Below are positions 21,575 to 46,279 of a DNA stretch of 64,000 bases, in pieces. The notes below the pieces were generated by a model, which saw only the letters and a list, made by a program, of their open reading frames with translations, made no database searches and was not told the origin of the DNA. Source of the DNA: Schmidtea polychroa (Eukaryota); contig CM097885.1 in the NCBI GenBank assembly GCA_044892525.1, positions 46,066,001-46,130,000 on the forward strand, in the 5' to 3' direction. Position 1 is the stretch's first letter. Each line of letters opens with the position of its first letter. Made by a program: the position numbers and the translations under genes.

Positions 21575-22118
21575 ATGTAACTTATGTTGGGGTTACACCT
21601 CGGCTGACCACTCTACCATGTTGACGGGTCTAAGGGTTGATTGTCCATCTCGAATAAAAGGTGCCACCGATTTGTCAACCTGGAGTGAAACCCCACATAA
21701 CTTTCTTCCAACATAGTGCCCGTGAATCACTTCACGTTGGTACTGCACTATGCAGGCGAGACGCCAGCAAGCAGGTGAGCTTCTGCCTTAAAACTACTCC
21801 TTGCTGAGGCCTCGACTTCCCATTCACGACTGCCGATAGAAGGGCTTACGTCCATTTCCTTACACAACCGCTTATCGGGATTCGCTGAATGCAAATTGGG
21901 AATTTCTCACTAGATCTTGCGGGTTCTCTACTCGACCCACTTAATTAAAGTCTAATTATTCATGAACGAAGACGTGTAAGACAACAAGATTTATTAATTT
22001 CAATGTTATGACACAAGGATTCAGCTGTACCCTTTACTAACGTTTGTCGAAAGAAGAGAAAACATCATAATCAACATAGATCGGATCCTTGTTCCTCATC
22101 CTGACCGCCACTGGGATT

Positions 22119-22907
22119 TTATTGTTTCTCCCATTCAGTGTCGGCGAATAATTCGTCGAGGTTAAAAAACTCGGAAGCGTTCTCTTCCCACATTACGCCA
22201 GCGGCTGATATGATTCGTGCCGAGGGTCCCGTTGTTAGGTCGATGGACACGTGAGAGTTGCCACCGCTGGTTGAATCCTCTATGGATGGGATGTTTGGCT
22301 TTGTAGTGGCGCACTCGCGCTGTCTCTTCTTGCGCTCTGCACGAGAGAGTTGTTTGCGCTTGGGTTTGCTTGAAGAGGCCACTTGCAGAAGGGTGACTGA
22401 TACGGATGGACTAGCAGTGGGGGGCTTACTGGTACCCGTGATGACAACATCTGGTCGCTTGGGGGACAATTCGGTTTCGACGCAGTCTCGGCACGGTCTC
22501 TTGAACGGTGGAGTTGGATTCGAGGAAAGGTTGTGATGAGGCGGAAAGATGTCATCGGCCTCTCGGATGGGAATCTGCACGATTTTTCGGGTTGTAGCCG
22601 CCTGCACGTAAACCTTATGCAGTGCCTCGGATTGTTCTCTGATTAGACTTCTTTGGGCACGGCTCTCAGATATTAGCGCGTCCCGGCAATGCTCGCTACG
22701 ATCGAGCTTCTTTTGGATCTCTTTCATCCGAGCGGGACTAAACCATGTCCCTTCCAGCTCGTCTATCTTCCTCTTGTAACGTCCAATCTGAGTTTGTAGG
22801 TCCTTTATCACCGTATTTTTATCCGCGCACGAGAAGCACGGCCGTAATGCTGATTTAGTGGTTGGTAGCATGCTTGCTATAAATAATACTAATGAAATGG
22901 AGAACAT
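22119..22907 (-). CDS. LTR-encoded 262-aa protein of unknown function (3' LTR copy)
   Basis: Open frame with CxxC, coiled coil, basic NLS-like KPKRKQLSRAERKKRQR and an acidic-aromatic C-terminus; AATAAA downstream at 21990-21995. Confidence 0.65.
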   Translation of the reverse strand: MFSISLVLFIASMLPTTKSALRPCFSCADKNTVIKDLQTQIGRYKRKIDELEGTWFSPARMKEIQKKLDRSEHCRDALISESRAQRSLIREQSEALHKVYVQAATTRKIVQIPIREADDIFPPHHNLSSNPTPPFKRPCRDCVETELSPKRPDVVITGTSKPPTASPSVSVTLLQVASSSKPKRKQLSRAERKKRQRECATTKPNIPSIEDSTSGGNSHVSIDLTTGPSARIISAAGVMWEENASEFFNLDELFADTEWEKQ

Positions 22908-24324
22908 ACGATTTTAGAATAAATTAGATACGACCCGCGTCCATTCGTGGATACTTGACCGTCGAAAAGAAGGAAAACTTATTCTACAATCCGGTTTTAC
23001 TACGGATCTTAGTTGTTAAAACAGTTTATTTAACCAAATGCCATCGGTTTGACGCATGTTATTAACTTTGACTATCTATTGATCTAACTGTATGCATGAG
23101 GGACGTAATAATTGATAGGGTGTAAATATAATATTGGTGAAACAATATAATAATGCTTTAGTAGAGGGACATTATAGTATGCGACCAAACCTTGCTATAT
23201 GTTATCTATTTTAATTTATTAAAAACAAATTACTATCGCTCTCAACATATTTTTGATTCGAAATTGGTTATTGGAAGTGCACTTTTAATTCGGTAGTGAA
23301 TGTGATTATCCATGTTGTCTACCATCGGTCTGAAAATATGTGATGAGTTTACATCAGCCATTACTTTAACACCCTCATGGAAAATCCCATCGGTCATAAC
23401 ATATCCAAATTTACGGATACTGCTGTCGACTGGTTGATTACATTATCGACCTATTGTGAATGGCACGTGTCGCGACTATCATGTATGCTAGTCTGATATT
23501 CTGTGCTCTCACCACATGGATTCGTGTATGGCTACTATCTTATCTCACTCACTTGGTGTATGCCATTTTCACGGTGATTTCATCGATCCTGCTGTCATAT
23601 GATTTTTTCTACACAGTGATTTATTTGAATTATGATTTACGCTACAGTCAGTTCTCATCGCGGAATTTTGCCCTTATCAACTTGTGTGAATGATCACCAT
23701 CGTTTGGAAATTTATTGGATCTTTTCAGTGATCGTCGAGGGAATAATTCTACCAAATACTGAAGCTTATTACTACTCTCGTCATTCTACTCGGATTTTCC
23801 TATTCAGATGTAATGCCGTCTCAATGAAACCTGCCCTTAGCCATTCGAAATTTTCTCTCAGGTTAAATAATTTGGATATATACAGTGATGCCCTGGCTCT
23901 TATTGTAGAAATAAATGTTATTAATTAAATTTGATGATATTTTACCTGTTTATAATTTTTGAAATAACTAAGTCTATAAAAACTTTCTGATTATAATATT
24001 AGAGAGGTTTTCGTAGAATCTCGCATTTTTCAGTTTCGAGTTAGTTAAAGTTTTTAGGATACTTTCGTAACCTGACATACAATCTGGACAGGCTAGATGA
24101 CATTGGGTCTATGATAACGGAATTTCATACGAAATTAGTTCTACTGAGTCCGGCAAATAGACGTTGTCGCAATTAACTTGATGAAACCATGTTTCCAGAT
24201 GAAGCGTACTATGAGATGTCGTTATTTTTGACGAAGTTCACTAAATCGTTGTCTGGATCTCATTTTTCAATAGGGGTAAGATTTACGAAAACGACTTGAC
24301 GAAAGAAAAAGGAATGCGACGCCC

Positions 24325-24594
24325 TCAGTCACTGTGTAAATCCTTGAAAATCCCTTCATTCGTACGACTATCTCTGTGAAAATCATTGTCTGCCAGCGAT
24401 TCTTTTAACCATGACCCCTTGTGATCATTTAGTCGCATCTTCAGCGATAGGACCCGTGAAGAAGCCTTCACATTTCGGCCCAATCTAGCTGCGTGATTGA
24501 AATACTCCATGTCCACCGGCTGAGCTCCCGAAGGCACCTCATACCATGACATGGAGTATCTCAACTCCACGTTACTCGTTAAATGAAAATTCAT
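24325..24594 (-). CDS. Small LTR ORF, 89 aa (copy at 50424-50693)
   Basis: A diverged nucleotide homolog exists at ~52096-52245; coding status uncertain. Confidence 0.35.
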   Translation of the reverse strand: MNFHLTSNVELRYSMSWYEVPSGAQPVDMEYFNHAARLGRNVKASSRVLSLKMRLNDHKGSWLKESLADNDFHRDSRTNEGIFKDLHSD

Positions 24595-25666
24595 AAAATC
24601 TTTAATTCAAATAAAATACGGACATCTGGATAAAAATATTTTATTAATTCTGAAATACTTAAATAATACAAATTACATCAATACGTTAAAGTTATTAAAA
24701 TGAAGAATCAAATGAAGAGAGTTAACCAAAATGTTTAATCGTTAATATTTACCATTACTATTAGCTTTACAAATACTTAAATAAATCTATAAACAAATGA
24801 AATACCCCTTACTATTGTTTAGGCTGAGTCAAAATTCAATATTGTTCGTTCCAAATAGTTTGAATGGTGGTCCGTTGGATGTCGATTATTGTGACGAATG
24901 GTATTTCGGTCTCTGAACTGGTTTTGAATAGTTGTGGAGTTTTCTGAATGACGGTTGCTTGGCTAGTAGTGTCGATCCTATGAAATGCTCGGGGTTAACA
25001 GTAACAGTAAACATTTTTCTTACCTATGAAATGCTCGGGGTTAACAGTAAATTTAATGTTTTTGGTAGTTGTATATATATCAAATTCTTATTTGTGCGGA
25101 CCAATCAGAGTTGAGTACCGCTTATTTCTATTAATTTAATATAATTTTCTTGTTTTTAGGTTGTTTTTTCCTTATTTTCTTTATTTTTAATATGTTTTTC
25201 TATTTATTTCCTTAATTTCCTTATTATTTCTTGAATTCCTCTTTATTTATTTGTCAACTTGTTCTATTTTAATCTTTTCTTAATTTTATTTTTTGTTTTA
25301 ATTCTTATGTCTTACTTATTATTTTCCTTATATCTTATTCTATTTTATTTCTGATTTTATTTATTTTATTATTATTTTTCTTAATGTTCTACTTCCCTAC
25401 TTTCCTATTTTTCAACGATTAAATTTTCGACTCAGCCCAACAAATCACTCGGGGACCCATCAAAATTGCGTCCCGCAATTGCATAATTAACTTAATTCAT
25501 TCATTCAAAAAAAATATAACACGAACACGAAAATTATACAACAATGATAAAATTTTTATTGTAAGATCTAGGTCAAAGCAAGATCAAGCAAGTATCACTT
25601 AAGGTGATAGTTTGTACATACAATAAAAGTTTCCACATATAATAACACAAATGTTTGAATTAGAGT

Positions 25667-26335
25667 TTATGAATTGTTAACCATTGATGCTTCTGCTGGC
25701 GGCTGTTGGTTGGTTTGGGTATTGATGTTGAGATAGGTCTGACTATTAGATTTCGGCTGGATTGGTTGATTACTCGGGGTTCGAGGTTGGAATGGGGTTG
25801 GGTTAAGATTTGTCAGGGGCACTTCTTGAGGATTTTGGTTCGAGGTTACTCTTATTGATGTCGAGACTCTACATCTATTTCGAATTTCGTAAATTTTCAT
25901 GAATATTGGTAGACATAGGAGGAGGGTTTCTGCGATCACCACATATATGAGATAATGGGTGTCATTGATCTCGGGAGGTGTTTTTGGCTTTTCTACAAGA
26001 TTTTCAAAATCCTCTTGTTGCATTTGTTGTTCCAACTGGTCGATCTGTTGGCTTTGTTCGAAGATTTGTTTGTTTATCATTTTACAAATGGGATTCCTTT
26101 TACACATTGTTTGGATGTTGTTGATGTGTGATCGGGTTGATTGAATGGTTTGGATGATATGGGTTTTTACGGTCATCGGGTATGTGCATTGACTGGATTC
26201 TTGTTTAGGTTCTTGATTTTGATTTCGGTAATCTCGTACGATTTTCGGTTGGGCGTCTATTTGTTTGCTCTCCATCAGAATCCTCAATACCATCATTGTT
26301 ATCATCATCTCGCCTCGCATGATACTATTATACAT
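25667..26335 (-). CDS. Accessory ORF: probable single-pass membrane protein with coiled coil
   Basis: Hydrophobic N-terminus, CxxxxxC, TM segment YLIYVVIAETLLLCLPIFM, and a P/Q/N-rich tail. Confidence 0.65.
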   Translation of the reverse strand: MYNSIMRGEMMITMMVLRILMESKQIDAQPKIVRDYRNQNQEPKQESSQCTYPMTVKTHIIQTIQSTRSHINNIQTMCKRNPICKMINKQIFEQSQQIDQLEQQMQQEDFENLVEKPKTPPEINDTHYLIYVVIAETLLLCLPIFMKIYEIRNRCRVSTSIRVTSNQNPQEVPLTNLNPTPFQPRTPSNQPIQPKSNSQTYLNINTQTNQQPPAEASMVNNS

Positions 26336-26375
26336 TCATTATGTTTATTTACAATTGGTTTTAATGACCCTTAAT

Positions 26376-27128
26376 TTAATGGTTCTGATTTGGATTATTT
26401 TCGCCGATTCTCATCAAGGTGGACTCTGCTTTAATTACCCTGTGTCTTAACTCGGGCAGCATTTCCAATTGTCGGTCTTTTTCACGGGCTTCTCTCTTTA
26501 GATGTCTAATTTCTTTTTCCAAGCGTCTAATTTCTTCCCTTTTCTTTTCAAGGTTTCTTTTTAGCTCGATTTGTAGGAGATCTTGTTCGTTTTCTTGCAG
26601 GTAATTTTGTTGTTGATGTTTTCTTTCTATTTCTCTATATTTGCGGACCCACTTCCTCATTTCTTTACTTTCCCGTTGGTTTTCTTCTAGTTGTCGTTTT
26701 AATTTATTTATAGCTGTTTGGCGCTCCTTCGCCTCAGTTTTCCAGTAGTCTTGGATTACCTCCTTTGCTTTGAAGCTTGCCCTCTCTTTCCATAGTTCTT
26801 CCGCTATCTTTTCCCAGTTTTTCCCTCGCTTCCTTTGTTCGTGTAGCCATTCATTTTCCTCTTCCGTTTCTCTTTTTATTTCCCCCAACGCTTCGCACTC
26901 TTTCTTTAACACCTTTATCATTTTCCGGTCCTCTAGGTATTTGTTTATTAATCTCCCGTTTTCGTATTTCTCTTCCCGTAACTCGGCCTTTAGCGTTTGT
27001 GTTTCTGTTGTTTCTGCCTCAATCTCTCCCTCTTCTACGTCGCTCATAATTTCTATCATTTCCTCGATTTTCATATCTATAATATGTACAGTTAATGGTG
27101 CGCTATAGTGCGACTTATACGTATACAT
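26376..27128 (-). CDS. Accessory coiled-coil protein (likely start M19 at 27074)
   Basis: E/K/R-rich heptad-like sequence with the same codon bias as the other element ORFs. Confidence 0.7.
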   Translation of the reverse strand: MYTYKSHYSAPLTVHIIDMKIEEMIEIMSDVEEGEIEAETTETQTLKAELREEKYENGRLINKYLEDRKMIKVLKKECEALGEIKRETEEENEWLHEQRKRGKNWEKIAEELWKERASFKAKEVIQDYWKTEAKERQTAINKLKRQLEENQRESKEMRKWVRKYREIERKHQQQNYLQENEQDLLQIELKRNLEKKREEIRRLEKEIRHLKREAREKDRQLEMLPELRHRVIKAESTLMRIGENNPNQNH

Positions 27129-27246: not shown

Positions 27247-28356
27247 TCATACGAAGGTTTCCTCCTGGCCTACATAACCTTCATCACTATCGACCGCGGA
27301 ATGTAACTGTATCGCAATAGGGTCGTATGGTAGGTAATATTGGGGAATTTGAGCTCTCAATTCACTAACTTCGTCTCTTAGAGCTCGAGTGATATTCAAT
27401 TCCTCGTCGAGCAGATAGGTGAGATACCTTGTCTCTTCATCTTGCGCCTCTATCTGTTTGTCTAGGGCCTTGATTTTCTCGTCGCCCTTCCATTTTTCAA
27501 TTTCTATTTCTAAGTTTTTAATATTTTCGGTGTACATTTTCCTTTCGTTTTCTAATTTTCTGTTTTTTCCCGCTAGGACCATGTTTCTTTGTTCCAGCGA
27601 TCCTTGTAATCCATTAAGGTCTCTTTTCATCTCTTCTACCTGATTTACTAATTCCACAACCCGTCCCGCTTGTTGGGTTATCATCTCTTCCATTGCGGCA
27701 TTCTCGTGCTCTCTTATGTCGCACTTCATTGCCAAATGTCGCTCAAACTCCATAGCCTTTGTTTGCCAGGTTTGGCTTCGGGCGGCGACCTTTCTCAACC
27801 TTTTCAATTCTTCCTTTATTATTAAATTCTCTTCCCATTTACCTTGTTCGCTTTCATATCCGAGTCTCATGGGCAATTCTTTCATCTCTTTTTTCATTTC
27901 TCTGTTTTGTCTTTTCCATTTCCTCGCTTCTGCCACTAAGTGCATCATTTTCCTGTCTTCTATTTGTTTTTCCGCTTCGCGCTTGGTGTTCTCATCGGTA
28001 AGTCTCTTTCTCGCTTCCTGCACTAGCTGCTTTAAGTAGTGGCTGTGTGCTTCTTGGCGGGTATTTTCTAGTGACGCCCATTTTGATGCTCTTTTGCATG
28101 CTTCTGCTTCCGCTCTTAAGTTGTGTATTAACCATTGGTATTGACTATTCTCATCTTCTCTAGTTTCTTCGATGTGATTTCGGGTGAGATTAGTTAGTTG
28201 GAACATTACTTTGTTCCATTTTTTGTTATGTTCTCGGGGAATTTGTGTCTTGTTGACATTGGTTGGGGCTATCGCAGTTTCGGTTATTTTCTCTTGTGTC
28301 ATCTCTAAATCATAGACATCGATTAATCTTTTTATTATGAAAAAGAATTTATTCAT
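27247..28356 (-). CDS. Accessory coiled-coil protein (likely start M19 at 28302)
   Basis: 369-codon open frame, predominantly helical and charged. Confidence 0.7.
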   Translation of the reverse strand: MNKFFFIIKRLIDVYDLEMTQEKITETAIAPTNVNKTQIPREHNKKWNKVMFQLTNLTRNHIEETREDENSQYQWLIHNLRAEAEACKRASKWASLENTRQEAHSHYLKQLVQEARKRLTDENTKREAEKQIEDRKMMHLVAEARKWKRQNREMKKEMKELPMRLGYESEQGKWEENLIIKEELKRLRKVAARSQTWQTKAMEFERHLAMKCDIREHENAAMEEMITQQAGRVVELVNQVEEMKRDLNGLQGSLEQRNMVLAGKNRKLENERKMYTENIKNLEIEIEKWKGDEKIKALDKQIEAQDEETRYLTYLLDEELNITRALRDEVSELRAQIPQYYLPYDPIAIQLHSAVDSDEGYVGQEETFV

Positions 28357-28494: not shown

Positions 28495-29883
28495 TTACTC
28501 CGTTCTACCCTTCTCCTCTTTCCTCACGGTCATCTTGATATATATGGTATCATTTCTCGCCATATCTTCTACTCTTTGTTGTGAGATGAACGTAGGTGCT
28601 CCTGTTGCTGATCCTTCTTCGTTGAGGGGCCTCTGGTAAGCTATTTGATTCCCCGTTGTTTTGAAGCTTTGCTCATGTATACTTTGGTTGTTCATCAGAG
28701 TAATATCGATTTTTGCCTGGAACGGCCATTCTAATATTTCGTCGTATTCTCCTTTACATAACAGAAAGAAAATCGAAAAGTGCGTGTTTAATCCGGTTCC
28801 GTCCCCGTTGGGATATATCTTCATTTTCATTTTGTACCCATTTTTCCAAGAGTGGAATGTAGGACTTGTTATTCTTGTCTCTTCTCCGGTTTTTGCTTTT
28901 CGTATTCTTTCTTTTACTCCCGTTATTTTCCATATGTAGGGTGCTGTTGGGGTTATCTCATTTAGATTTATTTCCCGTATTTTCTGATGTAGCTCCTTGG
29001 CCTGATTATTACTGATTTCTGTTCGGTTTATTTGCATCTTTAGGTTTGCTCGGGCTTCTTCGAACGCTTTCCTTTCTTCTAGTAGTTCTTTGACTAACAC
29101 TTTCAACGATGTTATCTCTATCTCCATTTGTTTTACTTTCTCTTCGCTTTCTTGTAACGCAGTCGACCACATTTCTGCGTGAGTTGAAGCATTTTCTACT
29201 AAATGATGTGGTAACTCACCTCGGTGTAGTAATTTCTGACAACCCCATCTACCTAGTACACATGTCATTCTTTTCTTTTCGCATTCCCTTAGATGCTGTG
29301 CCACCTTCATTATTTCCCCTTGGTTACATCCGTTTGGGCATTCCCCACTGAACTCCGCACATACTCTCTCCTCTTGGACATTGTGATGTTTGAGGGTGAG
29401 ATTTATCCACGTATCTATTTCTCCACAGTGTTCACATCTTTCTAATCTCTCTTCACACTGCTTTTGATGTTCTTTTTCTTCGCTTGCTCGAATGGTTTTA
29501 TGGCATCTTTCACACTGGCCAATTCTGTACATACATTCTCCCATATGTTGTACTACCTTCCATATTACTCCTTTCCATTCGCATGGGGCATTTTTGCATC
29601 CCAGGTTGGTGTTTAACACGTCTTTCACTGCGGCTTTATCCTCGTTAGTGTCTTCTAAACTCGATATTAGTGTCTCTTTACACACCGGGCACCTCTGTGG
29701 TCTATTCTTTATTGCTTCACTGATACATTCTTTACATACTCTGCATCCACATTGCGTTTGGTGAGGTTCCTTTAACAACTTTTCACATATTCCGCACATA
29801 ACATGTTTGTGTATTCTGATCGTTGTAGATTTTCGGACTTGCTCGACAATCTCTCTGAACTCTTCTCTTTGTCGTTTATCCAT
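28495..29883 (-). CDS. Intronless TRAF-family protein (RING - TRAF zinc fingers - coiled coil - MATH/TRAF-C)
   Basis: CGICEKLLKEPHQTQCGCRVCKEC...CPVC; CKNAPCEWKG...HMGEC; YIWKITGV...SPTFHSWKNGYKMKMKIYPNGDGTGLNTHFSIFFLLCKGEYDEILEWPF. Confidence 0.93.
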   Translation of the reverse strand: MDKRQREEFREIVEQVRKSTTIRIHKHVMCGICEKLLKEPHQTQCGCRVCKECISEAIKNRPQRCPVCKETLISSLEDTNEDKAAVKDVLNTNLGCKNAPCEWKGVIWKVVQHMGECMYRIGQCERCHKTIRASEEKEHQKQCEERLERCEHCGEIDTWINLTLKHHNVQEERVCAEFSGECPNGCNQGEIMKVAQHLRECEKKRMTCVLGRWGCQKLLHRGELPHHLVENASTHAEMWSTALQESEEKVKQMEIEITSLKVLVKELLEERKAFEEARANLKMQINRTEISNNQAKELHQKIREINLNEITPTAPYIWKITGVKERIRKAKTGEETRITSPTFHSWKNGYKMKMKIYPNGDGTGLNTHFSIFFLLCKGEYDEILEWPFQAKIDITLMNNQSIHEQSFKTTGNQIAYQRPLNEEGSATGAPTFISQQRVEDMARNDTIYIKMTVRKEEKGRTE

Positions 29884-29968
29884 TCTATAATTATATGTAC
29901 AAATAGTTCTTATCGATACAGGTTCGATATTTTATTTACAATTATTTACATTTTAAGCTAGGTTTGGT

Positions 29969-30328
29969 TTAGGGTTCGGAAGAGTCGGCTTCGTGCCCGC
30001 TCTCCTCTCTATTCATTAGCCATTCCGACCAGTCTTCTATTTCTGTCTGTTCTGCTTCCTCCCTCATTCGGTCTATTTCAATTTCCTGTCGACGGCTATA
30101 TTGGGTTATCCTCTCTATCTCTCTTTGCATTTGTTCGATTTTTAACCTCTGGTCTTCAATTATCTTCAAATAACTAAATCCTCTGTTCATACTCTCGATC
30201 AGGTTTCTGTGCATCGTCAGTCCTTGTTCTTGCAAATTGGACACTAATTGTGCTAATACGGCACATTGTTGCTTCCATAATTCTTCAGTTACTGTATTGT
30301 GGTTCATTTCGTTATTTCCTTGATCCAT
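29969..30328 (-). CDS. Small accessory coiled-coil protein (119 aa)
   Basis: Open frame with heptad pattern, flanked by the same intergenic signals as its neighbours. Confidence 0.6.
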   Translation of the reverse strand: MDQGNNEMNHNTVTEELWKQQCAVLAQLVSNLQEQGLTMHRNLIESMNRGFSYLKIIEDQRLKIEQMQREIERITQYSRRQEIEIDRMREEAEQTEIEDWSEWLMNREESGHEADSSEP

Positions 30329-30488: not shown

Positions 30489-33400
30489 CTATATACGTGA
30501 GTTTGGAGGGCGCTGAGCGTTCCAGGCCTCCACCCACTGTTCTTGTTTGATATTACTTGGTCGTTTCACTCGATGTTGGAAATTTCTGATTCGAGTCATC
30601 TCTAGTTCTCCGCGATGTCGTTTATCCTTAATTATTTTTATTGTTCCCCCCGTTATGATTAGGAATGCCCCTGTTATTATTATCCCACTGATCCACATCA
30701 TCTGCTTCACGCTTATACTCTCTGGTTTTTCCTGGTTTGTTAATGTTGATATTGCTTCTGTACTTTTCTCGTTCCCTCTTTTGCCGTTTCCTTTCATCCT
30801 TTCCCGTATTCTTGCTATTTCCTCGTTCATACCCTCCTTTGCCATCTTCTGTATTTTTTCCATCTCTTCTTCCGAAACATAGTTGTCCTGAGCTTCCTCA
30901 CCAGTTTTCTTGTGCTTTCCTCCTTCGTTCTTTTCGTCGTGGTTCTTTCTTTTCTTTCCTCTTTTCCCCGGGTATCGTCGGCATTCTCTTTTTGATTCAT
31001 TCCTCCAGATACAAACCGTGTATTCTTTCGGCGGCTGCTGCTGCGTCACATATTGATGGCATCTCTCACCTGGTCCTAATCTTGAAATACAGACTTTGTG
31101 CTCTTTTCTAGGTTGGATCTGCGTTATTACTACTTCACCACCTTTTCCTAGGTGTACCTCTTTTCCTTTGACGTTCGTTATTCTCTTCCCGTCTCGATTT
31201 CGGTATGCTTCTTGTATTCTTACTTCTGTTATTGGTTCTGTGTCCTCATTTATCAGTACTAGTTTCTGATACGCTCTAGACATGCATCTTCCTAGTATGC
31301 ACCTTTCCTTTAAGTCCCATTCTTCCTTTAAATCCCACTGCTGCTCTTGTGCTTGCTTTCTCTTTTCTTGTTTTAGTTCATCCTCTTTGCTATCTTGATT
31401 CTCCGCTTCTTTGGTTTCTTTTATCGTTCTCGTCCCTCCCTGAGCTGTTACTAACTCTATCATGGTAAGCATAATTATCATTAATATCATATTTGTCTCT
31501 ATTTCTTTGTTAGTGAAAGGTAGGCATACCCTCTGTTTTCCATTATTCGATTTTTCCTCCTCTTTGGTCTTGGTTCTCGGGCTGTTTCCCTCTCTTTTCG
31601 TATCCGAATCCTTGTTTTCTGGTTTACCCTCCTCCGGTTCTCTTTTCTCTTTATCCTCCTTGCGGTCTTTTCCGTTATTGTCATCGTGTTTATCTCCCTC
31701 GCTGTCATTTAAAATGTCGTCCTCGACATTTATATCGTTCAATAATCTGCGATATGCTGTTAGCACTCTGTTTCTTGCTAATTTTGCTTCGAATTCAAAC
31801 TCTTTTCTACCCGTTGCAGCATGTCTCTTTCTATTCCATTCTTTAACTAACTCTCTCAATTGCATACGACGATGTTTCCCAATTCGTTGTTGCTCGTTCT
31901 GATTTTGCGTGAATTTTAGGTCTTCTCTATTTAATACTATTAAAATAATTTTAGGCGTCCCCCCCTTAGTTAGGGTATTCTTTACCATCGCATTTTCTCC
32001 GTTTTCGTAGAATTCGTTTACATTTATCGCATATTTATTATTTTGTGGTACTCTCCAGGTTAATAATAATTTCATTGCTTCTAGATTTTTCCGTACCGTA
32101 TTCCATTGAAACTGAGATGTGTTTTTGCACATATTTTCAACTTCTTCTTTTGTCGCATTTTTGCAAATAAATCTGATCATTTCTAAGTTTGGCTGTATGG
32201 TTGCCCAGTCCAAGGTGGAATTTCCTTCATTGGACCTTTCGTCTAGTTTCGATCCTGATTGATGTAGGATGTGGAGTGTTTTTGGGTGTATTTTCGTTAT
32301 AGCTGCATACATCATGGCGGTTTCACCTTGTTCATTTTTCGTGTTGGTTTCCTCGCCCATCTCTCCAAGGATTCTCACGATCGTTATTGCTCTATTTTCT
32401 TTCGCCGCTAGTATTGCTTGTTGTAGGGGTGTTCTGGAATCCTTCGTTACCATCGTAAATGCTCGAGGCAAGAAGGTTTTGATTTTCCCGATATCTAAAT
32501 CCGTGGTTTGATCTCTTGCGTATGTGTGTACGGCTTTTATTATTTTTGACAATATTATTTCGTCTGGCAGCTCTAGCATTTCCTCAAAGAACACTTCTTT
32601 TGCTTTGCGTATTATTGCCTCTTGATCTATACTCATTGATTTGGTTTCGATGACGTTGTTTGTGACCGTTTGGTTCGTTGTTGACTTTGATTCCCTGGAT
32701 TTCTCATACCTTATTTTCGTTTTCTTTCCGTTTGGATTATTGATTCGTTCCTCTGCTGTAAGTATTTGGATAATATCCATGTAATTCTCGCGGATGTTAT
32801 TCATCGTGTCCATCATATATAATACACTTACTGTTTCCCAATATTTATGTCGTACTTGGTTAGTAAATTGGAATAGTGATTTTTCGAATGTGTCGATTCG
32901 CTTTTTTGTTAACTGTTCGTCTTTGTGATTTGTGAATTTTATCCCTCGTTCCAGTAATTGATTCGGGATTTCGAATAAATGATGTCCTTTCATAGCTTCT
33001 CTCATCAGCGTGTTCTCTCCTCTCGTGAACGCTTCGTTTACGTTGATCATATAATCGTTTCGAATTGGATTTCTCCATGTAATTAATATTCCGGTAATTG
33101 TCGTCAGTTTTTCTTTGATCGCTGTTAGCAATCCATCATACATGTTTCCGACTTCCCGATTGTCCTCATATGATAGTAGTTCCATCAATGACGTGAACGC
33201 CTCGGTACTTCTCCCTCTGATAGCATGATGTAGAGCGTTTTTCCGCTCGTGGTCTTGTGTAGTTATTTTCGATCCGGTATCGAGTAATGCGGTTATGATG
33301 TCTTTTGTTTTGCCTCTGTTTGCGGCTATCATTAATGGTGTGTAACCTTGGTTGTTTGTTTGTTCTGTTGATCGCTTGCAGTCGTGAAATGCTTCTATTG

Positions 33401-36400
33401 TTTCTAGTATTTGCTCGTTGTTACCTACTTTCATGAGTTTGTGTAATGGTGTGTCTCCGTAATGATCTGTTATTGTAAATAATATTGGCCATTGGCTTTT
33501 GACTACTCGCAATAATGGGTGTGTCCTTTCTCTATTTGCATAGTTCTCGATCATCGTCAATAATCCTCCTAATATTTCGAAATCTAATCGATCTTTTGCC
33601 CATCCAGGTATTTTAATTTTTACCTCCTTTACAATCTTTTCCGCTTCTGATGGTTGGATACCTAATCGTCCAGTGATCGGTTCTGCGAGTTGCTGCATCA
33701 TGTTCATTCGGTAGGTTTGCGAACGTGTGGTTAATGTACGGCCTTCTGGTTGACTAGTGGCTGTTTTTGGGATTGATTTGCATCGTGCCACGTTTACGTA
33801 TATTGGTCTGGTAAAGGGGTTATTTACCAATTTCACTCTTACATTAGTTTCGCCTACGAATAAGATCTCATATGGTCCTTTTCCGTTGCGTTGTAACTTT
33901 TTTGTGGTTCCTGGAATTAATTCCGGGGTTTCTATCATTACCCAATCACCTGTTTGGAACGTATGTTGCTTCACGTTTTTCTTTCGATCGTGTAAATCTT
34001 TATAACTTTCCTGGTAGAACTTGATATTTAATCCCGCAGTTTCCCAAATTTCTTGCATTCTTTCCTTGAATTTCGTAACATAATCATCGATCTCCATATA
34101 CTGCGATATCGGTGGTTGGTATTCCAGGTCCATTGGCATGTTACATTCTCTTCCGTACATTAATTTGAATGGGCTCATTTTCGTTGATGCGTGAATCGAC
34201 ATTCTGTACGCCATAAGACATAGGTTTATATATTCGTCCCAATCTCGTTGGTGACGGTCAACGTAGTTTGATAACATTTGTATAAGTGTTCCATTAAATC
34301 TTTCCGTCATCCCATTGGTTTGAGGGTGGTATGGAGATGTTCTTAGTTTTGCTATTTTGAAGTAATTTGTTACTTCGCTCATTATCTCACTCATAAAATT
34401 AGTTCCCTGATCGGTTAAGATTTGTTTTGGTGTTCCATATCGGCAACATATCTCTTCTACCAAAATTTTTGCGATTGTTTTAGCTTTTTGGTCTGGCATC
34501 GCGAATGCTTCTGGGAATTTCGTAAGAAAGTCTGTGATCACTAGAATGTAAACGTTTCCTTTATCTGACTCTGGTAGTGGACCAACTACGTCCATGGATA
34601 TCATTGTCATTGGTTCTATTGGTACTGGCATTGGTGTTAAAGGTGCTTTCCATTTCGATCCAGTATTCTTCCTGGTTGCACAAGTTAGACAATTTTTTAC
34701 CCATTCGGTTACATCTTCAGTTAACGTAGGCCAAAAATATTTCTGTTTCATTCTTGCTAACGTCTTTTTCGATGACATATGTCCTCCCAATCTCCCATCG
34801 TGATATTGCGTTAGTAACTCTTTTCGTCGGTTTTCCGGTATACACATTAATCGTTTTTCCCCATCCATTATCAGCAACCAATCTTTCTCTATAATATATC
34901 GGTGTCGGTGTTTATCCATATGTTCTTTTAATTTTTGGTCTTTCGCATATACCTCTGTCTTTCCGGTTTTTACATAATCGATAATTTGTTTTAATTCCGC
35001 GTCCTCTTGTTGGTCCTTTCGTAATTGACAGAAATCCAAATCTTCCGCTACTATTAAGCATATGCGTTGCATTTCTGAATCCACCAAATCTGGGAAAATA
35101 AATCTTGACATACAATCGGCGTTGGCATTTGCTCTTCCCGCTTTGAATTTTATAAATGGGGAGTATTCTTGCAATTGCATGGCCCATCGCATCAGTCTAC
35201 TGGACGCTTCTTTATGTTGCCCTAACCACACTAATGGTTGATGATCCGTGGTTATGCATATCTCATGTCCCCATAGTAAATATCGGAAGTGTTTGATAGC
35301 TTGTATTATAGCCAATGCTTCTCGTTCTGTTACCGAATAGTTCTTTTCGTGCTTTTTGAATGTTCGACTGTAATACCCGATTACTCTCTCTTTTCCCTCA
35401 TCGTCTAATTGTCCCAGAATCGCGCCTGCCGCGTACCCGCTTGCATCCGTTGCCAATAGAAATGGCTTCTTAAAATCTGGGTGTACGAGGATAGGTGCTT
35501 CGATTAGTTTGTCTCTCAGCGTTTCGAACGCCTGTTGTTGTTCTTTTTCCCAAATGAACGAAATATCCTTCTTTACTAATTCCTGGATTGGTTTTGCAAT
35601 TCCTGCATAATTTTTGATAAATTTGCGATAGTATCCGCATAATCCTAGAAATTCCTGAACTTGGGTGACAGTTTTCGGTGCTGGACATGTTTTTATTTTC
35701 TCAATGTTTCTTGGATCTGGCTCCTTTCCTTTAGCTGACACTATGTGTCCTAAAAACGTGACTTTTTCCTTTGCCCAATCGCATTTTGATGGTTTGAGTT
35801 TGAGTTTCCACTGTCTTAATCTAATAAATACGTTTCGGATATCTTCCAGATGTTGTTCAAATGTCGCTGAATAGATTAGTAAATCATCAATATATACCAT
35901 ACATTGTTTGATTCCATGGGTGACAAAGTTCATACACCGTTGAAATGATGCTGGTGCGTTGGTCAGTCCAAATGGCATTTTCCTGAATTGATATAGATCT
36001 CGTCCCAACGTGAAAGCTGTTTTCTCTTTGTCCTCATCTTTGACTTTAATCTGCCAGTATCCACTTTTTAGATCTAAAGAAGTAAAATATGCTGCCCCTT
36101 GCAACATCAATAACATCTCATTGATGTCCGGCAATGGGTAGGTATCTCTCTTGGTCACTGCGTTTAACTTCCGATAATCGATACAGAATCGTTGGGTGCC
36201 ATCTTTCTTTTTCACCATGACCACTGGGAATTGCCAGGGTGAGCAACTTGGTTCGATTACTTTTGCGTCTAGCATCTTTTGTACTTCTGTTTCGGCTATT
36301 TCTTTCTGCATTTCTGCTAGCTTGTATGGTCTCAATGCAATTGGGGTTTCGTCTATGAGTGGTATTGCATGTAAGGTAACATCACATGTACCCAAGTCTA

Positions 36401-39400
36401 AATCTGAGATGGCGAATATATCTTTATATTCTACCAACAATCGGTGCAATTTTTTCTTTTCGTCATTCGTCAACAACATACTATCTATTGTCCATAATTC
36501 ATCATCTTTGATCATCTCGTTGGTCACTTTCGGTAATTCTATGTCCATCATTGGGGTCAATCTTCCCAATTTTTCGTTCTCATAAATGATTTTGTCTTCC
36601 TCTTCGAAATTCGTGATGTTGAGCGGTATCACTCCTTCTTGGTTTATTGTGATTATTTCTCTTGCGAGTGGTAATTCTCGTCGCTTTTCAAATGACTTGC
36701 TTGGTTCAAAGATAACTTCTCCTTCCATACCCGTATCCACTTTTATCTGACAAATCATCTGTGATTTTGCTGGTACTATTATTTTTTCTGGACATCTGAT
36801 GACTGCATTCATTTTGCATATTCTACCGGTTTTGTCTTTTAAACACATGGTTGTTAAGTCAATTACGACTTCTTTTAACAATTCTGGCATCAAATCCGTT
36901 CCGATTATGCATGGTACGCTAAGTTTTGGTATTACTGCCAAATACGTTTCAATTTCGTTGTCCTGGTATCTCAATGTAGTCCACCATCTTCCGACCACGT
37001 CCACTGTTTCTTTACTACATGCTATGATGTGAATTGTTGTTGATTCGATATCCTTCCAGTGTTTACTGGGGATTTGATTAATCGCTATCGCTGATACATT
37101 AGCTCCGGTGTCTATCATAGCATTGGTTTCTTTACCATTGATTTGAATCATAACTGTTACTGCTGGACCTCCAGGTAAACTCATCGCTGCTATTGTTCTT
37201 ACGTCATCTGCTTGATCTACACTTTTGGTACGTCGTGTTGGCATATAATGCATACCGGGTTGACTCGGTAATTGCGGATACATATTTTGTGTCATGGTCA
37301 AAGCTGTTTGTGGTCCCACGATATCCGGTGGTATATAGCTTCCATTGGCGATCCAGGTGTTTGTCTTTTCCTTTTCCCAATATGGTGCCGTTTCCATTGG
37401 TTTTTCGTTTGGGTTTCTGTTTGGATAAAGACATTTATCGTTCCCGTTATCATCGTCGTCACTATCGCTGTTAGATGATTGGCTTCTAAATCGGTCCAAG
37501 AATTTTGGCTTATTCTTTTTCAATTGTCGTCTTGTTGCTTCATCGTACATTACTTTCCGGAATCGTCTGCCTACTTCTTCGTCGGTTCCTTTAATCTTTG
37601 TTAATATTTTTATCAATCGCTTTATCCGATGAATGTCTTTTGAGTGGCCATGTAATACCATGGTCTTAGCTAAAAATGGTAAGAAGCCTACTATCATTTT
37701 CCAATTAACTTTCTTTTCCCGCTTGTATATATCGAAACAAGCTAACATTTGTGTTAGTATTACTCTGACTATCTGAATTATGAGTATGATCCCTAATATC
37801 CCGGCCATCATTTGTCCAAAAACTAAGAATCTTCCCCACATTGCTTTCATCATGTTTGACGTAGCTTGTTGAAAATGGTCTGGCGATAATAGCAGCTCGT
37901 AATTCGGGCCTGATTGATAATTTGTGCCCCCAGTTATTGTAACCATATTAGACAAAATGGATTCTCGTCTGGCTGGGAAGAGTACGTTAAGTCGTGCTGT
38001 TTCTAGATCTTCTGGGGAATACATACCACCGTTTGACACGTCTATAGGTTTGAAATCCAGCTCTGTGGCGAGTTCTATTAATCCAAATTTCTTGGGCTCC
38101 TCGGATATGGTTTTTCCCGGTAACATCATCCATTTCCCATCGGGCCTTTCATATAAAGGTCCGTATGCATTAGAACAGTTAAAGAGATTTGGGTAGAAAC
38201 CCACTGGATTCATAATTCTAGTGACTGGTTGGACGAATCGATTTTGTCCTTTATAACGGATTTCTAATTCATTTGCACATCTCTTTTCGGGTAGTATGGA
38301 TTTTTCTGGCATTCGTGCATACGTCTTGGTACACTGGTATGTGTACATCACTTCTCCTACCATTCTACCAAAGTGTCCATCTGGTAATGGGAGGGATGGC
38401 ATCGTGTTATCTGGGTGCGTTATCGCAATAGCTAGCTTTGTTTTCAATATTTCTTTATTCAATGAACAATCGTTTTGTATCAGATCGTAATATACTTTTT
38501 GCAAGGTCGTTTGTCCACGATGAAATAGAAAATCCATTTTATTATTTGCATATAAGTATAGTTTTACGTCCTCCGTTGCTATCTTTCCCACTGCTCTATC
38601 GATTATTTGTCTCGACATATAGATACCTGCGTAATTGGTTTTATATACTATACTGTCACATTTGGTGGTTTCTTTCTCTTTGATAAACCTCATACCTAGA
38701 TCTGGATCGTCTGTGATTAATGCTGTTGGTGTCTTCTGCGTTGAAAGTCTCTTTTCTCTGGGAGATGGTGGCATTGGTTTTCCATTTCGCATCCTCACTC
38801 TGTCGTTTCCATCCTCGTCGTTCTCGTTCTCATATATTTCTCCTTTTACTTCATTGAACAAAGCACTTTTTAACAGTTGGAGTCGGCATTTTTGGGTATT
38901 AGCTTCATAGATTATAGTTGATACTCCTGTCCTGCATACGTTTTCTGTAGCTTTACACGTTGGGTTGGTCTTCATTTGGTAATTATTTGCGTCAAATTGC
39001 GCTTCGTATTCTTTTAATTCGACCGTGTAAGACTCGATCACTACAACTCCCGATATTACCTCGCCTCGGATCGTATACGTACCTCCGTTACATGACCCAT
39101 CTGATGATTTTACTTTTCCGGATACGTAAACACTTTCGGTTTTAATCATTCCAGTTTGTCCGTGAATTGTCACTCCGTTATGCATTTTTAGCGCTCCGGT
39201 TCTAAATAGCTCTTTACAATCCTCTCGTTGTATTGATACGATTTCTTTATCCAGACCGGGTAGTATAAGAGTCGAATACGAATATTGTCCACAGTAATAT
39301 GCGAGTACCTTTTTTGATACTACGCATTCCCTTGCTTGCGTTCTGATGAAATCTGATTCTTGATATACATGGTAAGTAACTTTTGTTCTTACGATGTCCA

Positions 39401-41345
39401 ATTTGTTGGGTGAGGCTTGTCTGCATTCTTCTATGTCTCTCAATGAGTATTTATCTCTCATTATCATATTATCACAATCGTAGATGGTGAAACCTGTTGC
39501 TCCACTTGTGCACAACATCCATATCATCATAGTCATCATTAACGAATTTATTGATGCTTTTCTGCTTGCGGGATCTTTCATCGGTAGTTCCCATTCTAGT
39601 TCATTTAACAGTTTTTTCAATCTAACTTGCATCGACCTTTCTTGCTCATTTTTCCGTGGCGCTTGTATTAGTCTTTTCCATCCTCCTGCACGAATAATAT
39701 GTGGTTCAATAGTATTCTCTATGATTGAAACGGTCATTTCCACATGATTTGCAAACTGTTTATTTGGTATTTTCCTCGCAGCTAGTCCCATCAAATTATA
39801 CATCAAATAAGTGATTACCACTAGATGATGCTCGTCATCATTTGCATTTGTCGTGAGCTGCTCAATCACTCTCTTTGTTTCGTCCCAATCCGTTTTGGTG
39901 GTTTTCGTTTTCTCTTTGATTAACTTTGGGATTATCCCCGAAATGGTGCGCCATAATTGTCTAGCTTCCGTACTGGCTACTTTCCGTTGCCACAAACGTC
40001 TAAGTTGTGGGTTTGTTATTATTAACATATCTTTTAACAATTCTCGTATCCATTTTTCTCCTCTTTCGATCGTTGGTTGGGCTTCCTTTAGATCCCATAC
40101 TATTTTATCCAATTTTTCTAATCGAAATTGCCCTTGTTCTTGCTTTAATTGTTCTTTGGTTTTGAACTCAGACTTTTCTCCTTGTTTCTTGGGTCTTCCT
40201 TTTGCCCGTTTTTCCATCATCGTTCCTGCTTCTCTGGTATTTTCGTAATTCGGATTTCTTTCGTTATCCGTTCTGGGTAATGAGCTATCGTTATTTCTTA
40301 GCCACTCATTCCATTCGTCTATTATTTTGTCGGTTTGACTTTCTGGTGTTACTTTCGTTGGTTCTCTTTGCTTCTGGAATTGTTCATCCGTTTCGGTTTC
40401 CGTAGTATTGTCGATGATTTCTTTGATGTTCAGTTTCGTTGGTTGTTGATAACTCGTTGATGGCTGGTTATTAGTCCACATTTCGGCTCCTGTCGGCCAT
40501 CTCACTAATAGCGGTGATCTTTCTCCTGGTTCATCGTCACTATCTTCCAGGATTATCTCTTCAACTTCTTCAGTTTCATTAGATTTACTTGGTGCTTTGT
40601 TCGGACTTGGAGTACTCAAACTGCCTTTTGTTGGTTTAATAATTTTACTTTTCCTTTTTAACGGTTTTCCCAACGTTTCTGCCATTGTTAATACATTTGT
40701 CTCTTCCAATCTCATGGGGGTTATCCCGACGTCTGCATTATCGTCTAGTGATTTTCCGAACAGTTGCAGATGGAATGGAGTTTCATATGCTAATTTCTTT
40801 TTTAATTCTCTAATTTTTGTTGTTGGATGCACCTCTAGTTCCTCGATGCTCTTGTCCGGATACTTGATTCGGATGTGATACCTCTCCTGGGTGTCTTGTG
40901 CCCATTCCTGATTTCTCCATTTTCGAATAATTTGTTCTAGCTGTTCTGGATACCATTCATTATATTGCCGGTATTCCTCTATTGCCTTTGCCATTCCTCT
41001 CAGATTGTGGATGTCCTCTGATGTCTTTAAGATGATGTTAGCCAACGCTACTACTTGGCGTCTTTGATTTTTCGCTCCCATTGCTAAGATATCGCCTAAT
41101 TGTTTATATCTTTCTTTCTCTTCTCGTTCTCTTGCTTCCGTCGCTTCCTCGCCGTCCATATCAGCATATTCACGTTCCTTTTTCCTCATTGCATGAATAT
41201 GTCTCGCTTCATTTTCGCTTTCTGATGTGACATCCGTCTCGCCTTCGTCATCTGATGTCTGTTCCCTTGCTTCCTCTTCATATTTTGGAGGTTCCTCTTC
41301 TTCTTCCTCCGATTCACTTTCTGTCTCACCAATGTCTGTTTCCAC
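30489..41345 (-). CDS. pol: 3618-aa polyprotein: UBL - Bcl-2-like - envelope glycoprotein - PR - RT - RNase H - IN - ankyrin repeats - C-terminal membrane protein
   Basis: PR IDTGANVS (~37110); RT YIDD (~35890); RH LATDASG (~35450); IN HDGRLGGH...CLTC, DVVGP, TDQG, NGMTERFN, GPY; ankyrin GDTPLH, GYTPLM, GETAMM. The annotated start is a GTG 7 codons after the gag UGA, in the same frame. Confidence 0.95.
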   Translation of the reverse strand: METDIGETESESEEEEEEPPKYEEEAREQTSDDEGETDVTSESENEARHIHAMRKKEREYADMDGEEATEAREREEKERYKQLGDILAMGAKNQRRQVVALANIILKTSEDIHNLRGMAKAIEEYRQYNEWYPEQLEQIIRKWRNQEWAQDTQERYHIRIKYPDKSIEELEVHPTTKIRELKKKLAYETPFHLQLFGKSLDDNADVGITPMRLEETNVLTMAETLGKPLKRKSKIIKPTKGSLSTPSPNKAPSKSNETEEVEEIILEDSDDEPGERSPLLVRWPTGAEMWTNNQPSTSYQQPTKLNIKEIIDNTTETETDEQFQKQREPTKVTPESQTDKIIDEWNEWLRNNDSSLPRTDNERNPNYENTREAGTMMEKRAKGRPKKQGEKSEFKTKEQLKQEQGQFRLEKLDKIVWDLKEAQPTIERGEKWIRELLKDMLIITNPQLRRLWQRKVASTEARQLWRTISGIIPKLIKEKTKTTKTDWDETKRVIEQLTTNANDDEHHLVVITYLMYNLMGLAARKIPNKQFANHVEMTVSIIENTIEPHIIRAGGWKRLIQAPRKNEQERSMQVRLKKLLNELEWELPMKDPASRKASINSLMMTMMIWMLCTSGATGFTIYDCDNMIMRDKYSLRDIEECRQASPNKLDIVRTKVTYHVYQESDFIRTQARECVVSKKVLAYYCGQYSYSTLILPGLDKEIVSIQREDCKELFRTGALKMHNGVTIHGQTGMIKTESVYVSGKVKSSDGSCNGGTYTIRGEVISGVVVIESYTVELKEYEAQFDANNYQMKTNPTCKATENVCRTGVSTIIYEANTQKCRLQLLKSALFNEVKGEIYENENDEDGNDRVRMRNGKPMPPSPREKRLSTQKTPTALITDDPDLGMRFIKEKETTKCDSIVYKTNYAGIYMSRQIIDRAVGKIATEDVKLYLYANNKMDFLFHRGQTTLQKVYYDLIQNDCSLNKEILKTKLAIAITHPDNTMPSLPLPDGHFGRMVGEVMYTYQCTKTYARMPEKSILPEKRCANELEIRYKGQNRFVQPVTRIMNPVGFYPNLFNCSNAYGPLYERPDGKWMMLPGKTISEEPKKFGLIELATELDFKPIDVSNGGMYSPEDLETARLNVLFPARRESILSNMVTITGGTNYQSGPNYELLLSPDHFQQATSNMMKAMWGRFLVFGQMMAGILGIILIIQIVRVILTQMLACFDIYKREKKVNWKMIVGFLPFLAKTMVLHGHSKDIHRIKRLIKILTKIKGTDEEVGRRFRKVMYDEATRRQLKKNKPKFLDRFRSQSSNSDSDDDDNGNDKCLYPNRNPNEKPMETAPYWEKEKTNTWIANGSYIPPDIVGPQTALTMTQNMYPQLPSQPGMHYMPTRRTKSVDQADDVRTIAAMSLPGGPAVTVMIQINGKETNAMIDTGANVSAIAINQIPSKHWKDIESTTIHIIACSKETVDVVGRWWTTLRYQDNEIETYLAVIPKLSVPCIIGTDLMPELLKEVVIDLTTMCLKDKTGRICKMNAVIRCPEKIIVPAKSQMICQIKVDTGMEGEVIFEPSKSFEKRRELPLAREIITINQEGVIPLNITNFEEEDKIIYENEKLGRLTPMMDIELPKVTNEMIKDDELWTIDSMLLTNDEKKKLHRLLVEYKDIFAISDLDLGTCDVTLHAIPLIDETPIALRPYKLAEMQKEIAETEVQKMLDAKVIEPSCSPWQFPVVMVKKKDGTQRFCIDYRKLNAVTKRDTYPLPDINEMLLMLQGAAYFTSLDLKSGYWQIKVKDEDKEKTAFTLGRDLYQFRKMPFGLTNAPASFQRCMNFVTHGIKQCMVYIDDLLIYSATFEQHLEDIRNVFIRLRQWKLKLKPSKCDWAKEKVTFLGHIVSAKGKEPDPRNIEKIKTCPAPKTVTQVQEFLGLCGYYRKFIKNYAGIAKPIQELVKKDISFIWEKEQQQAFETLRDKLIEAPILVHPDFKKPFLLATDASGYAAGAILGQLDDEGKERVIGYYSRTFKKHEKNYSVTEREALAIIQAIKHFRYLLWGHEICITTDHQPLVWLGQHKEASSRLMRWAMQLQEYSPFIKFKAGRANANADCMSRFIFPDLVDSEMQRICLIVAEDLDFCQLRKDQQEDAELKQIIDYVKTGKTEVYAKDQKLKEHMDKHRHRYIIEKDWLLIMDGEKRLMCIPENRRKELLTQYHDGRLGGHMSSKKTLARMKQKYFWPTLTEDVTEWVKNCLTCATRKNTGSKWKAPLTPMPVPIEPMTMISMDVVGPLPESDKGNVYILVITDFLTKFPEAFAMPDQKAKTIAKILVEEICCRYGTPKQILTDQGTNFMSEIMSEVTNYFKIAKLRTSPYHPQTNGMTERFNGTLIQMLSNYVDRHQRDWDEYINLCLMAYRMSIHASTKMSPFKLMYGRECNMPMDLEYQPPISQYMEIDDYVTKFKERMQEIWETAGLNIKFYQESYKDLHDRKKNVKQHTFQTGDWVMIETPELIPGTTKKLQRNGKGPYEILFVGETNVRVKLVNNPFTRPIYVNVARCKSIPKTATSQPEGRTLTTRSQTYRMNMMQQLAEPITGRLGIQPSEAEKIVKEVKIKIPGWAKDRLDFEILGGLLTMIENYANRERTHPLLRVVKSQWPILFTITDHYGDTPLHKLMKVGNNEQILETIEAFHDCKRSTEQTNNQGYTPLMIAANRGKTKDIITALLDTGSKITTQDHERKNALHHAIRGRSTEAFTSLMELLSYEDNREVGNMYDGLLTAIKEKLTTITGILITWRNPIRNDYMINVNEAFTRGENTLMREAMKGHHLFEIPNQLLERGIKFTNHKDEQLTKKRIDTFEKSLFQFTNQVRHKYWETVSVLYMMDTMNNIRENYMDIIQILTAEERINNPNGKKTKIRYEKSRESKSTTNQTVTNNVIETKSMSIDQEAIIRKAKEVFFEEMLELPDEIILSKIIKAVHTYARDQTTDLDIGKIKTFLPRAFTMVTKDSRTPLQQAILAAKENRAITIVRILGEMGEETNTKNEQGETAMMYAAITKIHPKTLHILHQSGSKLDERSNEGNSTLDWATIQPNLEMIRFICKNATKEEVENMCKNTSQFQWNTVRKNLEAMKLLLTWRVPQNNKYAINVNEFYENGENAMVKNTLTKGGTPKIILIVLNREDLKFTQNQNEQQRIGKHRRMQLRELVKEWNRKRHAATGRKEFEFEAKLARNRVLTAYRRLLNDINVEDDILNDSEGDKHDDNNGKDRKEDKEKREPEEGKPENKDSDTKREGNSPRTKTKEEEKSNNGKQRVCLPFTNKEIETNMILMIIMLTMIELVTAQGGTRTIKETKEAENQDSKEDELKQEKRKQAQEQQWDLKEEWDLKERCILGRCMSRAYQKLVLINEDTEPITEVRIQEAYRNRDGKRITNVKGKEVHLGKGGEVVITQIQPRKEHKVCISRLGPGERCHQYVTQQQPPKEYTVCIWRNESKRECRRYPGKRGKKRKNHDEKNEGGKHKKTGEEAQDNYVSEEEMEKIQKMAKEGMNEEIARIRERMKGNGKRGNEKSTEAISTLTNQEKPESISVKQMMWISGIIITGAFLIITGGTIKIIKDKRHRGELEMTRIRNFQHRVKRPSNIKQEQWVEAWNAQRPPNSRI

Positions 41346-41366
41346 GAAGGTTCCTTTCCGGATTTC

Positions 41367-45650: not shown

Positions 45651-46279
45651 TACGACTGGCTGGCACTATTCAACAGCTCAATCTTCTTCCTTCTGATCGG
45701 TTAGACTATTCAACAACTCGATCTTACGACTGGCTGGCACTATTCAACAGCTCAATCTTCCTCCTTCCTGATCGGTTGGACTTTTCACAACTCGACCTTA
45801 CGACTGGCTGGCACTATTCAACAGCTCAATCTTCCTCCTTCCTGATCGGTTGGACTTTTCACAACCCGACCTTACGACTGGCTGGCACTATTCAACAGCT
45901 CAATCTTCTTCCTTCTGATCGGTTGGACTATTCAACAACTCGATCTTACGACTGGCTGGCACTATTCAACAGCTCAATCTTCCTCCTTCCTGATCGGTTG
46001 GACTTTTCACAACTCGACCTTACGACTGGCTGGCACTATTCAACAGCTCAATCTTCTTCCTTCTGATCGGTTGGACTATTCAACAACTCGATCTTACGAC
46101 TGGCTGGCACTATTCAACAGCTCAATCTTCTTCCTTCTGATCGGTTGGACTATTCAACAACTCGATCTTACGACTGGCTGGCACTATTCAACAGCTCAAT
46201 CTTCCTCCTTCCTGATCGGTTGGACTTTTCACAACTCGACCTTACGACTGGCTGGCACTATTCAACAGCTCAATCTTCT
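45651..46279. repeat. Tandem array, 8.5 x 74 bp, two unit variants
   Basis: TACGACTGGCTGGC recurs at 45651, 45725, 45799, 45873, 45947, 46021, 46095, 46169 and 46243. Confidence 0.95.

Follow-up and report, generated by a model that had tools for sequence, protein, structure and literature searches.

A Burro-type Gypsy element in the planarian Schmidtea polychroa carries a whole TRAF gene, and this gene is fixed in the element family. The element is 29,957 bp long and the TRAF lies 3' of its pol. It was found in the window, by which we mean the whole 64,000-nucleotide stretch that was analysed. TRAF and MATH cargo in Burros is already known. What this work adds is the whole fixed gene, the constraint on it, its counterpart in a second Burro family and the single clade that the element copies form. 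We believe the element TRAF is probably an accessory protein, captured once and long ago, that acts as an adaptor and ligase on host survival or immune signalling. The worm's own large TRAF family seems not to derive from the element.

The carrier is bounded by two LTRs with a 4-bp target-site duplication on the outside of the pair. Read along the minus strand, its 5' part runs from the LTR through a RING ORF, a 74-bp tandem array and gag to weak Ubl and Bcl-2-like matches. The middle holds a mononegavirus-type fusion protein, protease, RT, RNase H, integrase and ankyrins, and the 3' part consists of orfD, TRAF, orfC, orfB, orfA and the second LTR (Table 1). Neither orfC nor orfB has a Pfam match above the cut-off, and a tRNA scan with ARAGORN found none. 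The flanks are AT-rich, and together with the element's architecture and its nearest named proteins, TRAFs of Dendrocoelum, they fit a planarian host.

Table 1. Positions in the window of the Burro element, its TRAF gene and the domains of the TRAF protein.
Feature	Position	Strand	Basis
5' LTR, 3858 bp, TG...CA	47684..51541	-	LTR pair comparison
5' accessory ORF with C3HC4 RING	46854..47360	-	Pfam
74-bp tandem array, 8.5 copies, in leader	45650..46279	.	repeat search
gag part (retrotrans_gag, CCHC knuckles)	41367..44687	-	Pfam
Remainder of polyprotein, in frame with gag, Ubl-like through ankyrin repeats	30489..41366	-	Pfam
orfD, accessory ORF immediately 5' of TRAF; homologue precedes family-B TRAF	29969..30328	-	
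Spacer 5' of TRAF, three TGTAHATA motifs and YAG just ahead of ATG	29884..29968	-	
TRAF accessory ORF, full-length, 462 aa	28495..29883	-	ORF check, Pfam, solved-structure matches, AlphaFold, fold search
RING domain, residues 30-68, eight Cys ligands, Cys where His is usual	29680..29796	-	Pfam, ligand spacing
Five TRAF-type zinc-finger clusters, residues 96-235	29179..29598	-	Cys/His spacing and invariant columns
Coiled coil, residues 232-304	28972..29190	-	uninterrupted helix in AlphaFold model
MATH / TRAF-C domain, residues 316-454	28522..28938	-	Pfam, solved-structure matches, fold search
orfC, accessory ORF immediately 3' of TRAF; homologue in family B	27247..28356	-	
orfB, accessory ORF	26376..27128	-	
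orfA, final accessory ORF	25667..26335	-	
3' LTR, 3858 bp, one mismatch against 5' LTR	21585..25442	-	LTR pair comparison

Burro1/GYPSM1 of Schmidtea mediterranea (Jurka 2007; Grohme 2018) is described in section 7 of PMC6431247, which already reports MATH_TRAF_C, BIR, Bcl-2-like and ankyrin cargo for the Burros. The window element resembles it in size and type, both being Gypsy-type LTR elements that reach about 30 kb, with as much as about 25 kb between the LTRs. The two are also alike in having one polyprotein that runs from gag through env to protease, RT, RNase H, integrase and ankyrins, and in their accessory ORFs, tandem repeats and MATH_TRAF cargo. The Burro1/GYPSM1 polyprotein further holds Ubl and a Bcl-2-like region. 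The single gag-to-integrase polyprotein expected of a Burro (~4,800-5,100 aa) is present as 1106 + 3625 codons in one frame. The mononegavirus-like env lies in frame between gag and protease (PF24664, E 1.8e-70) and ankyrin repeats lie 3' of the integrase (Ank_2, E 6.2e-18). Ubiquitin (E 0.0039) and Bcl-2 (E 0.029) matches fall at the expected places before env, both below the cut-off, and the two regions gave no PDB match. The window family differs from Burro1/GYPSM1 in having no polyprotein MATH and no BIR ORF, two features of the latter. Downstream of pol it has a complete TRAF gene with RING, zinc fingers, coiled coil and MATH, where section 7 of PMC6431247 names only a MATH_TRAF_C domain. 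The Dugesia tigrina Burro-like element in the same source is like the window family in that its polyprotein lacks MATH_TRAF_C and a separate accessory ORF encodes it, but that ORF is described there as upstream, whereas the window TRAF is downstream of pol.

The polyprotein of the window copy is interrupted by a stop at 41367-41369 even though its LTRs differ at one base of 3858. We considered programmed gag-pol readthrough and rejected it because the stop is present in just 1 of 28 matched copies (30 loci were examined and 2 were not matched by the anchor); the junction is open in the other 27. Each window LTR also contains a 264-codon open frame with no Pfam match (22119-22913 and 48218-49012), and the LTRs of family B, the second Burro family, have a similarly placed frame. 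A further LTR element lies in the window at 9494-18045, with identical 117-bp LTRs, a 5-bp target-site duplication, pieces of RT, RNase H and integrase, matches to a proteasome subunit, ubiquitin and DUF1759, and an 836-bp internal duplication.

The TRAF frame is open for 462 codons, from an ATG at 29883 to a stop at 28495-28497 on the minus strand. The first-pass annotation had called its set of TRAF modules complete and open, and this is borne out: RING, five zinc fingers, coiled coil and MATH all lie in one chain, as they should in a TRAF protein. Pfam scores the MATH domain at E 1.6e-27 and the RING at about 1e-4; zf-TRAF goes unscored in the window copy and is scored in its homologues. 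The top solved-structure relatives are TRAF3, TRAF2 and TRAF1. The AlphaFold model (mean pLDDT 86.7 from a 19-sequence alignment) has a strand-rich C-terminal domain preceded by a helix over residues 232-304, and Foldseek matches it to TRAF domains, the MATH fold of human TRAF2/TRAF3/TRAF5 being matched at E about 1e-17 to 1e-15 with 28-36% identity. The RING ligands are C30, C33, C45, C47, C50, C53, C65 and C68, and the CGCRVC motif is found in all 38 element TRAF copies compared. The element-like codon bias that had been noted is real as well, with third-position A 0.45 and T 0.16 in the TRAF against A 0.45 and T 0.18 in gag and pol.

That the TRAF is cargo of the element is confirmed by its position, inside the LTR pair and between orfD and orfC, with element flanks at 30 of 30 top TRAF loci. 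A protein search scored 92 of 2019 candidate copies, all of them 94-100% identical and 91 without an internal stop. More distant copies (68-96% identity) lie between pol/orfD and orfC in 8 of 8 and 11 of 11 cases, and the order pol-orfD-TRAF-orfC is kept in all 19, which were fetched by their TRAF. The integrase gives a view from the other side. Among the integrase exact matches listed on C1, 54 of 57 are followed by a TRAF marker at a distance of 2-7 kb. In the remaining three the marker is 16 kb off at one, an internal deletion is present at another and the third breaks off. A one-off insertion, with other copies lacking the TRAF, had been raised as a possible objection, but the sister copies carry it.

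The TRAF-bearing family is also abundant, as the first-pass annotation had allowed it might be. Counting marker matches rather than intact genes, with up to 2 mismatches allowed, we found 142 and 172 genome matches for two markers specific to subfamilies of the window's kind. A subfamily with 68% protein identity gave 139, and the stand-alone TRAF of family B gave 288. Stand-alone TRAF markers give 599 matches genome-wide, and the marker of the family-B polyprotein MATH gives 286. The reversed-pattern control was 0 for each marker, and there was no cross-matching in the loci tested. The integrase marker has 239 matches, but it reaches one family-B locus at 2 mismatches and is therefore not a clean denominator.

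Substitution patterns show purifying selection on the element TRAF. Nei-Gojobori dN/dS is 0.13-0.34 between the window copy and 37 others (29 distinct sequences in all). Against six subfamily representatives it falls to 0.06-0.12, at dS from 0.4 to above 1, with saturation in the comparison with the most distant subfamily. Constraint extends over RING, zinc fingers and MATH, the first two being as constrained as MATH, whereas in the coiled coil dN/dS among close copies approaches 1, a value based on few changes. We infer that selection acts on the TRAF as part of the element, because every lineage went through retrotransposition. It could be argued that the TRAF is a neutral passenger, carried without function, since very recent amplification alone would keep its frames open and the two LTRs are nearly identical. 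However, the low dN/dS over such deep divergence has already largely refuted this, and all zinc ligands are kept between families A and B, whose TRAFs are just 29% identical; we find the passenger hardly credible.

There are two Burro families in the genome. Family A is the window's, and family B is Burro1-like; with its 4791-aa frame, a MATH after gag and a BIR-RING ORF, it fits the description of Burro1/GYPSM1 best. In addition to the polyprotein MATH, family B has a further TRAF, which stands alone and fills the slot that the TRAF has in family A, between the homologues of orfD and orfC. This TRAF is much further from its family-A counterpart than are long stretches of the polyproteins, which are 59-64% identical. 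Directly 3' of it is the BIR-RING ORF, an arrangement seen at L058:7242-9898 and L068:3277-4455; this neighbour is missing from family A. The succession of a TRAF and an IAP-like BIR-RING protein recalls the TRAF2-cIAP pair. At L052 the BIR-RING ORF is split into two frames, and at L068:2-3133 the env region runs in frame into the stand-alone TRAF as a result of an internal deletion, giving a 1044-codon frame in the fetched stretch.

Relatives were gathered by HMMER search; a word-index protein search gave just 1. In the 72-row tree all element TRAFs and four database proteins form one clade (support 100/98). The mixture-model tree used 38 of the 72 rows, H_L039, P0053, P0131 and P0082 being among those dropped. 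It gives the element clade a support of 100 and nests it in a wider clade (support 98) that also takes in TRAFs of the host and of Dendrocoelum. The clade persists in a tree of MATH alone (96/94), from which P0001 is absent because it has no MATH. The polyprotein MATH falls inside the element clade there, which suggests duplication within the element. The skewed amino-acid make-up of the element rows could pull families A and B together in such trees, so the shared gene order serves as independent support for their relation. We looked for a third TRAF-bearing family close to the database protein P0004 and saw none among 91 scored matches, the best of which has only 34-37% identity, with family-B frame lengths.

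These results agree with the first-pass suggestion of an old capture: the element TRAFs of both families form one clade in the triclad TRAF radiation, inside the host and Dendrocoelum group. A single capture from a triclad TRAF before families A and B split, by way of either mRNA or DNA, is the simplest reading. The element TRAF stands apart from the fish TRAF and echinoderm TRAF3-like rows and does not group with any one named vertebrate TRAF, as an orthologue of TRAF2, TRAF3 or TRAF5 should. It is like those human proteins in architecture and MATH fold, but its RING His and receptor-binding serine loop are changed.

The host TRAFs are a separate matter. About 55 host-type MATH loci, judged by match length and position, stand among the best 150 MATH scores of 1551 candidates. 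We fetched 20 regions with 23 frames from those best 150, so rare escapees from the element could lie beyond this sample. Burro gene order is found at 0 of the 20 regions, and LTR fragments in 7. In third-position A/T ratio, 11 element TRAFs range from 2.44 to 3.66 and the 23 non-element frames from 0.63 to 1.25. It had been asked whether the element TRAF might be near-identical to a single host gene; the closest non-element TRAF is only 31% identical to the window protein over 437 aa. More broadly, triclad host TRAFs (Dendrocoelum lacteum TRAF-2, -4 and -5, the non-element loci L031-L050, and Smed-TRAF-2A/B of PMC7586133) share with the element TRAF its domain order, a length of about 450-490 aa and often one coding exon. 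The Dendrocoelum proteins and the non-element loci differ from it in having 24-31% identity over long alignments, host-type codons and separate clades.

Two features that the first-pass annotation had singled out must be read in this light. The CGCRVC motif with Cys for His is real but not peculiar to the element, and we rejected it as an element novelty: Cys at this position occurs in 9 of the 9 non-element frames that the RING pattern matched (12 tested), and in three Dendrocoelum TRAFs. Among 92 database TRAFs this RING position is His in 55, Cys in 18 and another residue in 3, with 16 unmatched. The lack of introns had been taken as a sign of capture via mRNA, and this argument fails, for 9 of 12 long non-element frames also have RING and MATH in one open frame. 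Neither feature is diagnostic of the element; both are inherited host traits.

The element had also been proposed as a vehicle for TRAF expansion, with Burros seeding the host family by escaped copies that became domesticated. Hundreds of dispersed element copies and the many non-element TRAFs with a single coding exon lend this some appeal, as does local duplication on C1 (152.86-153.50 Mb, L121-L128), where a segment with a truncated Burro fragment and partial TRAF is present in at least 8 copies about 99% identical. Yet 8 of 8 duplicates fetched from this cluster stop at residue 292-302, ahead of MATH, so we rejected it as a domesticated TRAF array. Not one of the 23 frames from outside the element groups with its clade or shares its composition, and several non-element TRAFs are close to database proteins, those of Dendrocoelum included. 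Seeding by Burros is thus quite improbable. To judge from the sampled sequences, the host expansion is real, separate from the element and mostly made of clustered genes. One such group of TRAF-like genes, on C2 at about 105-124 Mb and 1-5 Mb (L042-L050), forms its own clade (100/99), with RING and MATH in separate open frames wherever both were seen; some of its loci have transposase frames of hAT or piggyBac type nearby.

What the element does with its TRAF can be approached from how the gene might be expressed. In 9 of 9 family-A copies shown, and likewise in family B, the TRAF ATG follows a YAG at a distance of 1-2 bases, which is where the splice acceptor of a putative sub-genomic RNA would be expected. 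The TGTAHATA motifs and the YAG of the TRAF spacer are common to the spacer ahead of the family-B TRAF. The motif was picked by eye before its enrichment was tested. On the sense strand it occurs 10 times in the family-A accessory-ORF spacers (window 25443-30488; shuffle mean 0.56, maximum 4) and 7 times in those of family B (L058, L068; shuffle mean 0.74, maximum 5), and on the antisense strand once in each. It corresponds to a Pumilio-type UGUANAUA, following the consensus in PMC5855632, which also reports that planarian stem cells need Pumilio. Alternative readings are a Fox site or UGUA with AAUAAA; AATAAA is not enriched in the spacers over shuffles.

We suggest that an ancestral Burro took a TRAF once from a triclad lineage before its two families split. 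The captured gene would then have evolved as part of the element, becoming as A-rich as the rest of it and multiplying whenever the element retrotransposed. The protein would be translated from a spliced or processed sub-genomic RNA. As a trimeric adaptor with a RING ligase function, it would act on signalling through host TRAFs, either for survival or in innate immunity. It may work beside the element's other apoptosis and ubiquitin cargo, the Bcl-2-like region and RING ORF and, in family B, the BIR-RING protein, with the outcome that cells expressing the element survive. The likeliest role is therefore to keep such cells alive or to damp their immune response. Loss of two TRAF-like genes leads to cell death in S. 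mediterranea (PMC7586133), and BURRO1 RNA appears on loss of SMEDWI-2 (PMC8532177).

One stretch of the protein complicates this proposal. Where human TRAF1/3 have their SSS/SAS stretch, which we take to be the receptor-peptide-binding loop, the element TRAF reads QIA and no longer has the P-D ahead of it. This makes it doubtful that receptor peptides are bound in the canonical way. This leaves room for a decoy: a dominant-negative protein that co-trimerises with host TRAFs or out-competes them, dampening innate or antiviral signalling. Such a protein might well have a loop diverged from those of human and host planarian TRAFs, with fold and coiled coil kept, as in the AlphaFold model. However, a pure decoy has no need of the RING and zinc fingers, and these are constrained like MATH (dN/dS 0.04-0.19 where estimable), so we regard a decoy as unlikely and favour the adaptor and ligase role. 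A more ambitious proposal is that Burros encode a virus-style, self-contained TRAF-IAP-Bcl-2 module for survival and immune control, tuned to stem cells by Pumilio-type elements in the spacers of sub-genomic RNAs, and that element transcripts are part of the TRAFs counted or knocked down in planarian studies. We offer this conjunction tentatively, as something that could be true but probably is not in full.

Our literature searches showed no paper on the full-length 3' Burro TRAF, on the selection acting on it or on how it is related to the TRAFs of the host, though Grohme 2018, its supplements or the Repbase GYPSM1 entry may already map the ORF. The words 'transposon', 'retro' and 'Burro' are absent from the main text of PMC7586133. 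A constrained adaptor in two retroelement families makes the remark in PMC6431247, that Burros may interfere with apoptosis and ubiquitination, testable on one soluble protein. The more ambitious proposal could bear on piRNAs too: SMEDWI-3 piRNAs target traf, ankyrin and E3-ligase mRNAs (PMC6824462), and the presence of these families in Burros may explain those targets. The first-pass concern that element copies inflate assembly-based TRAF counts is plausible. Transcript-based counts (121 domains in PMC6109357, 282 contigs in PMC7586133) would collapse near-identical element copies. The 599 stand-alone marker matches outnumber the roughly 55 host-type loci among the best 150 of 1551 MATH scores, so planarian TRAF counts, RNAi reagents and expression probes need to be screened against the element clade. 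The true expansion of host TRAFs is now set apart from the cargo of the element.
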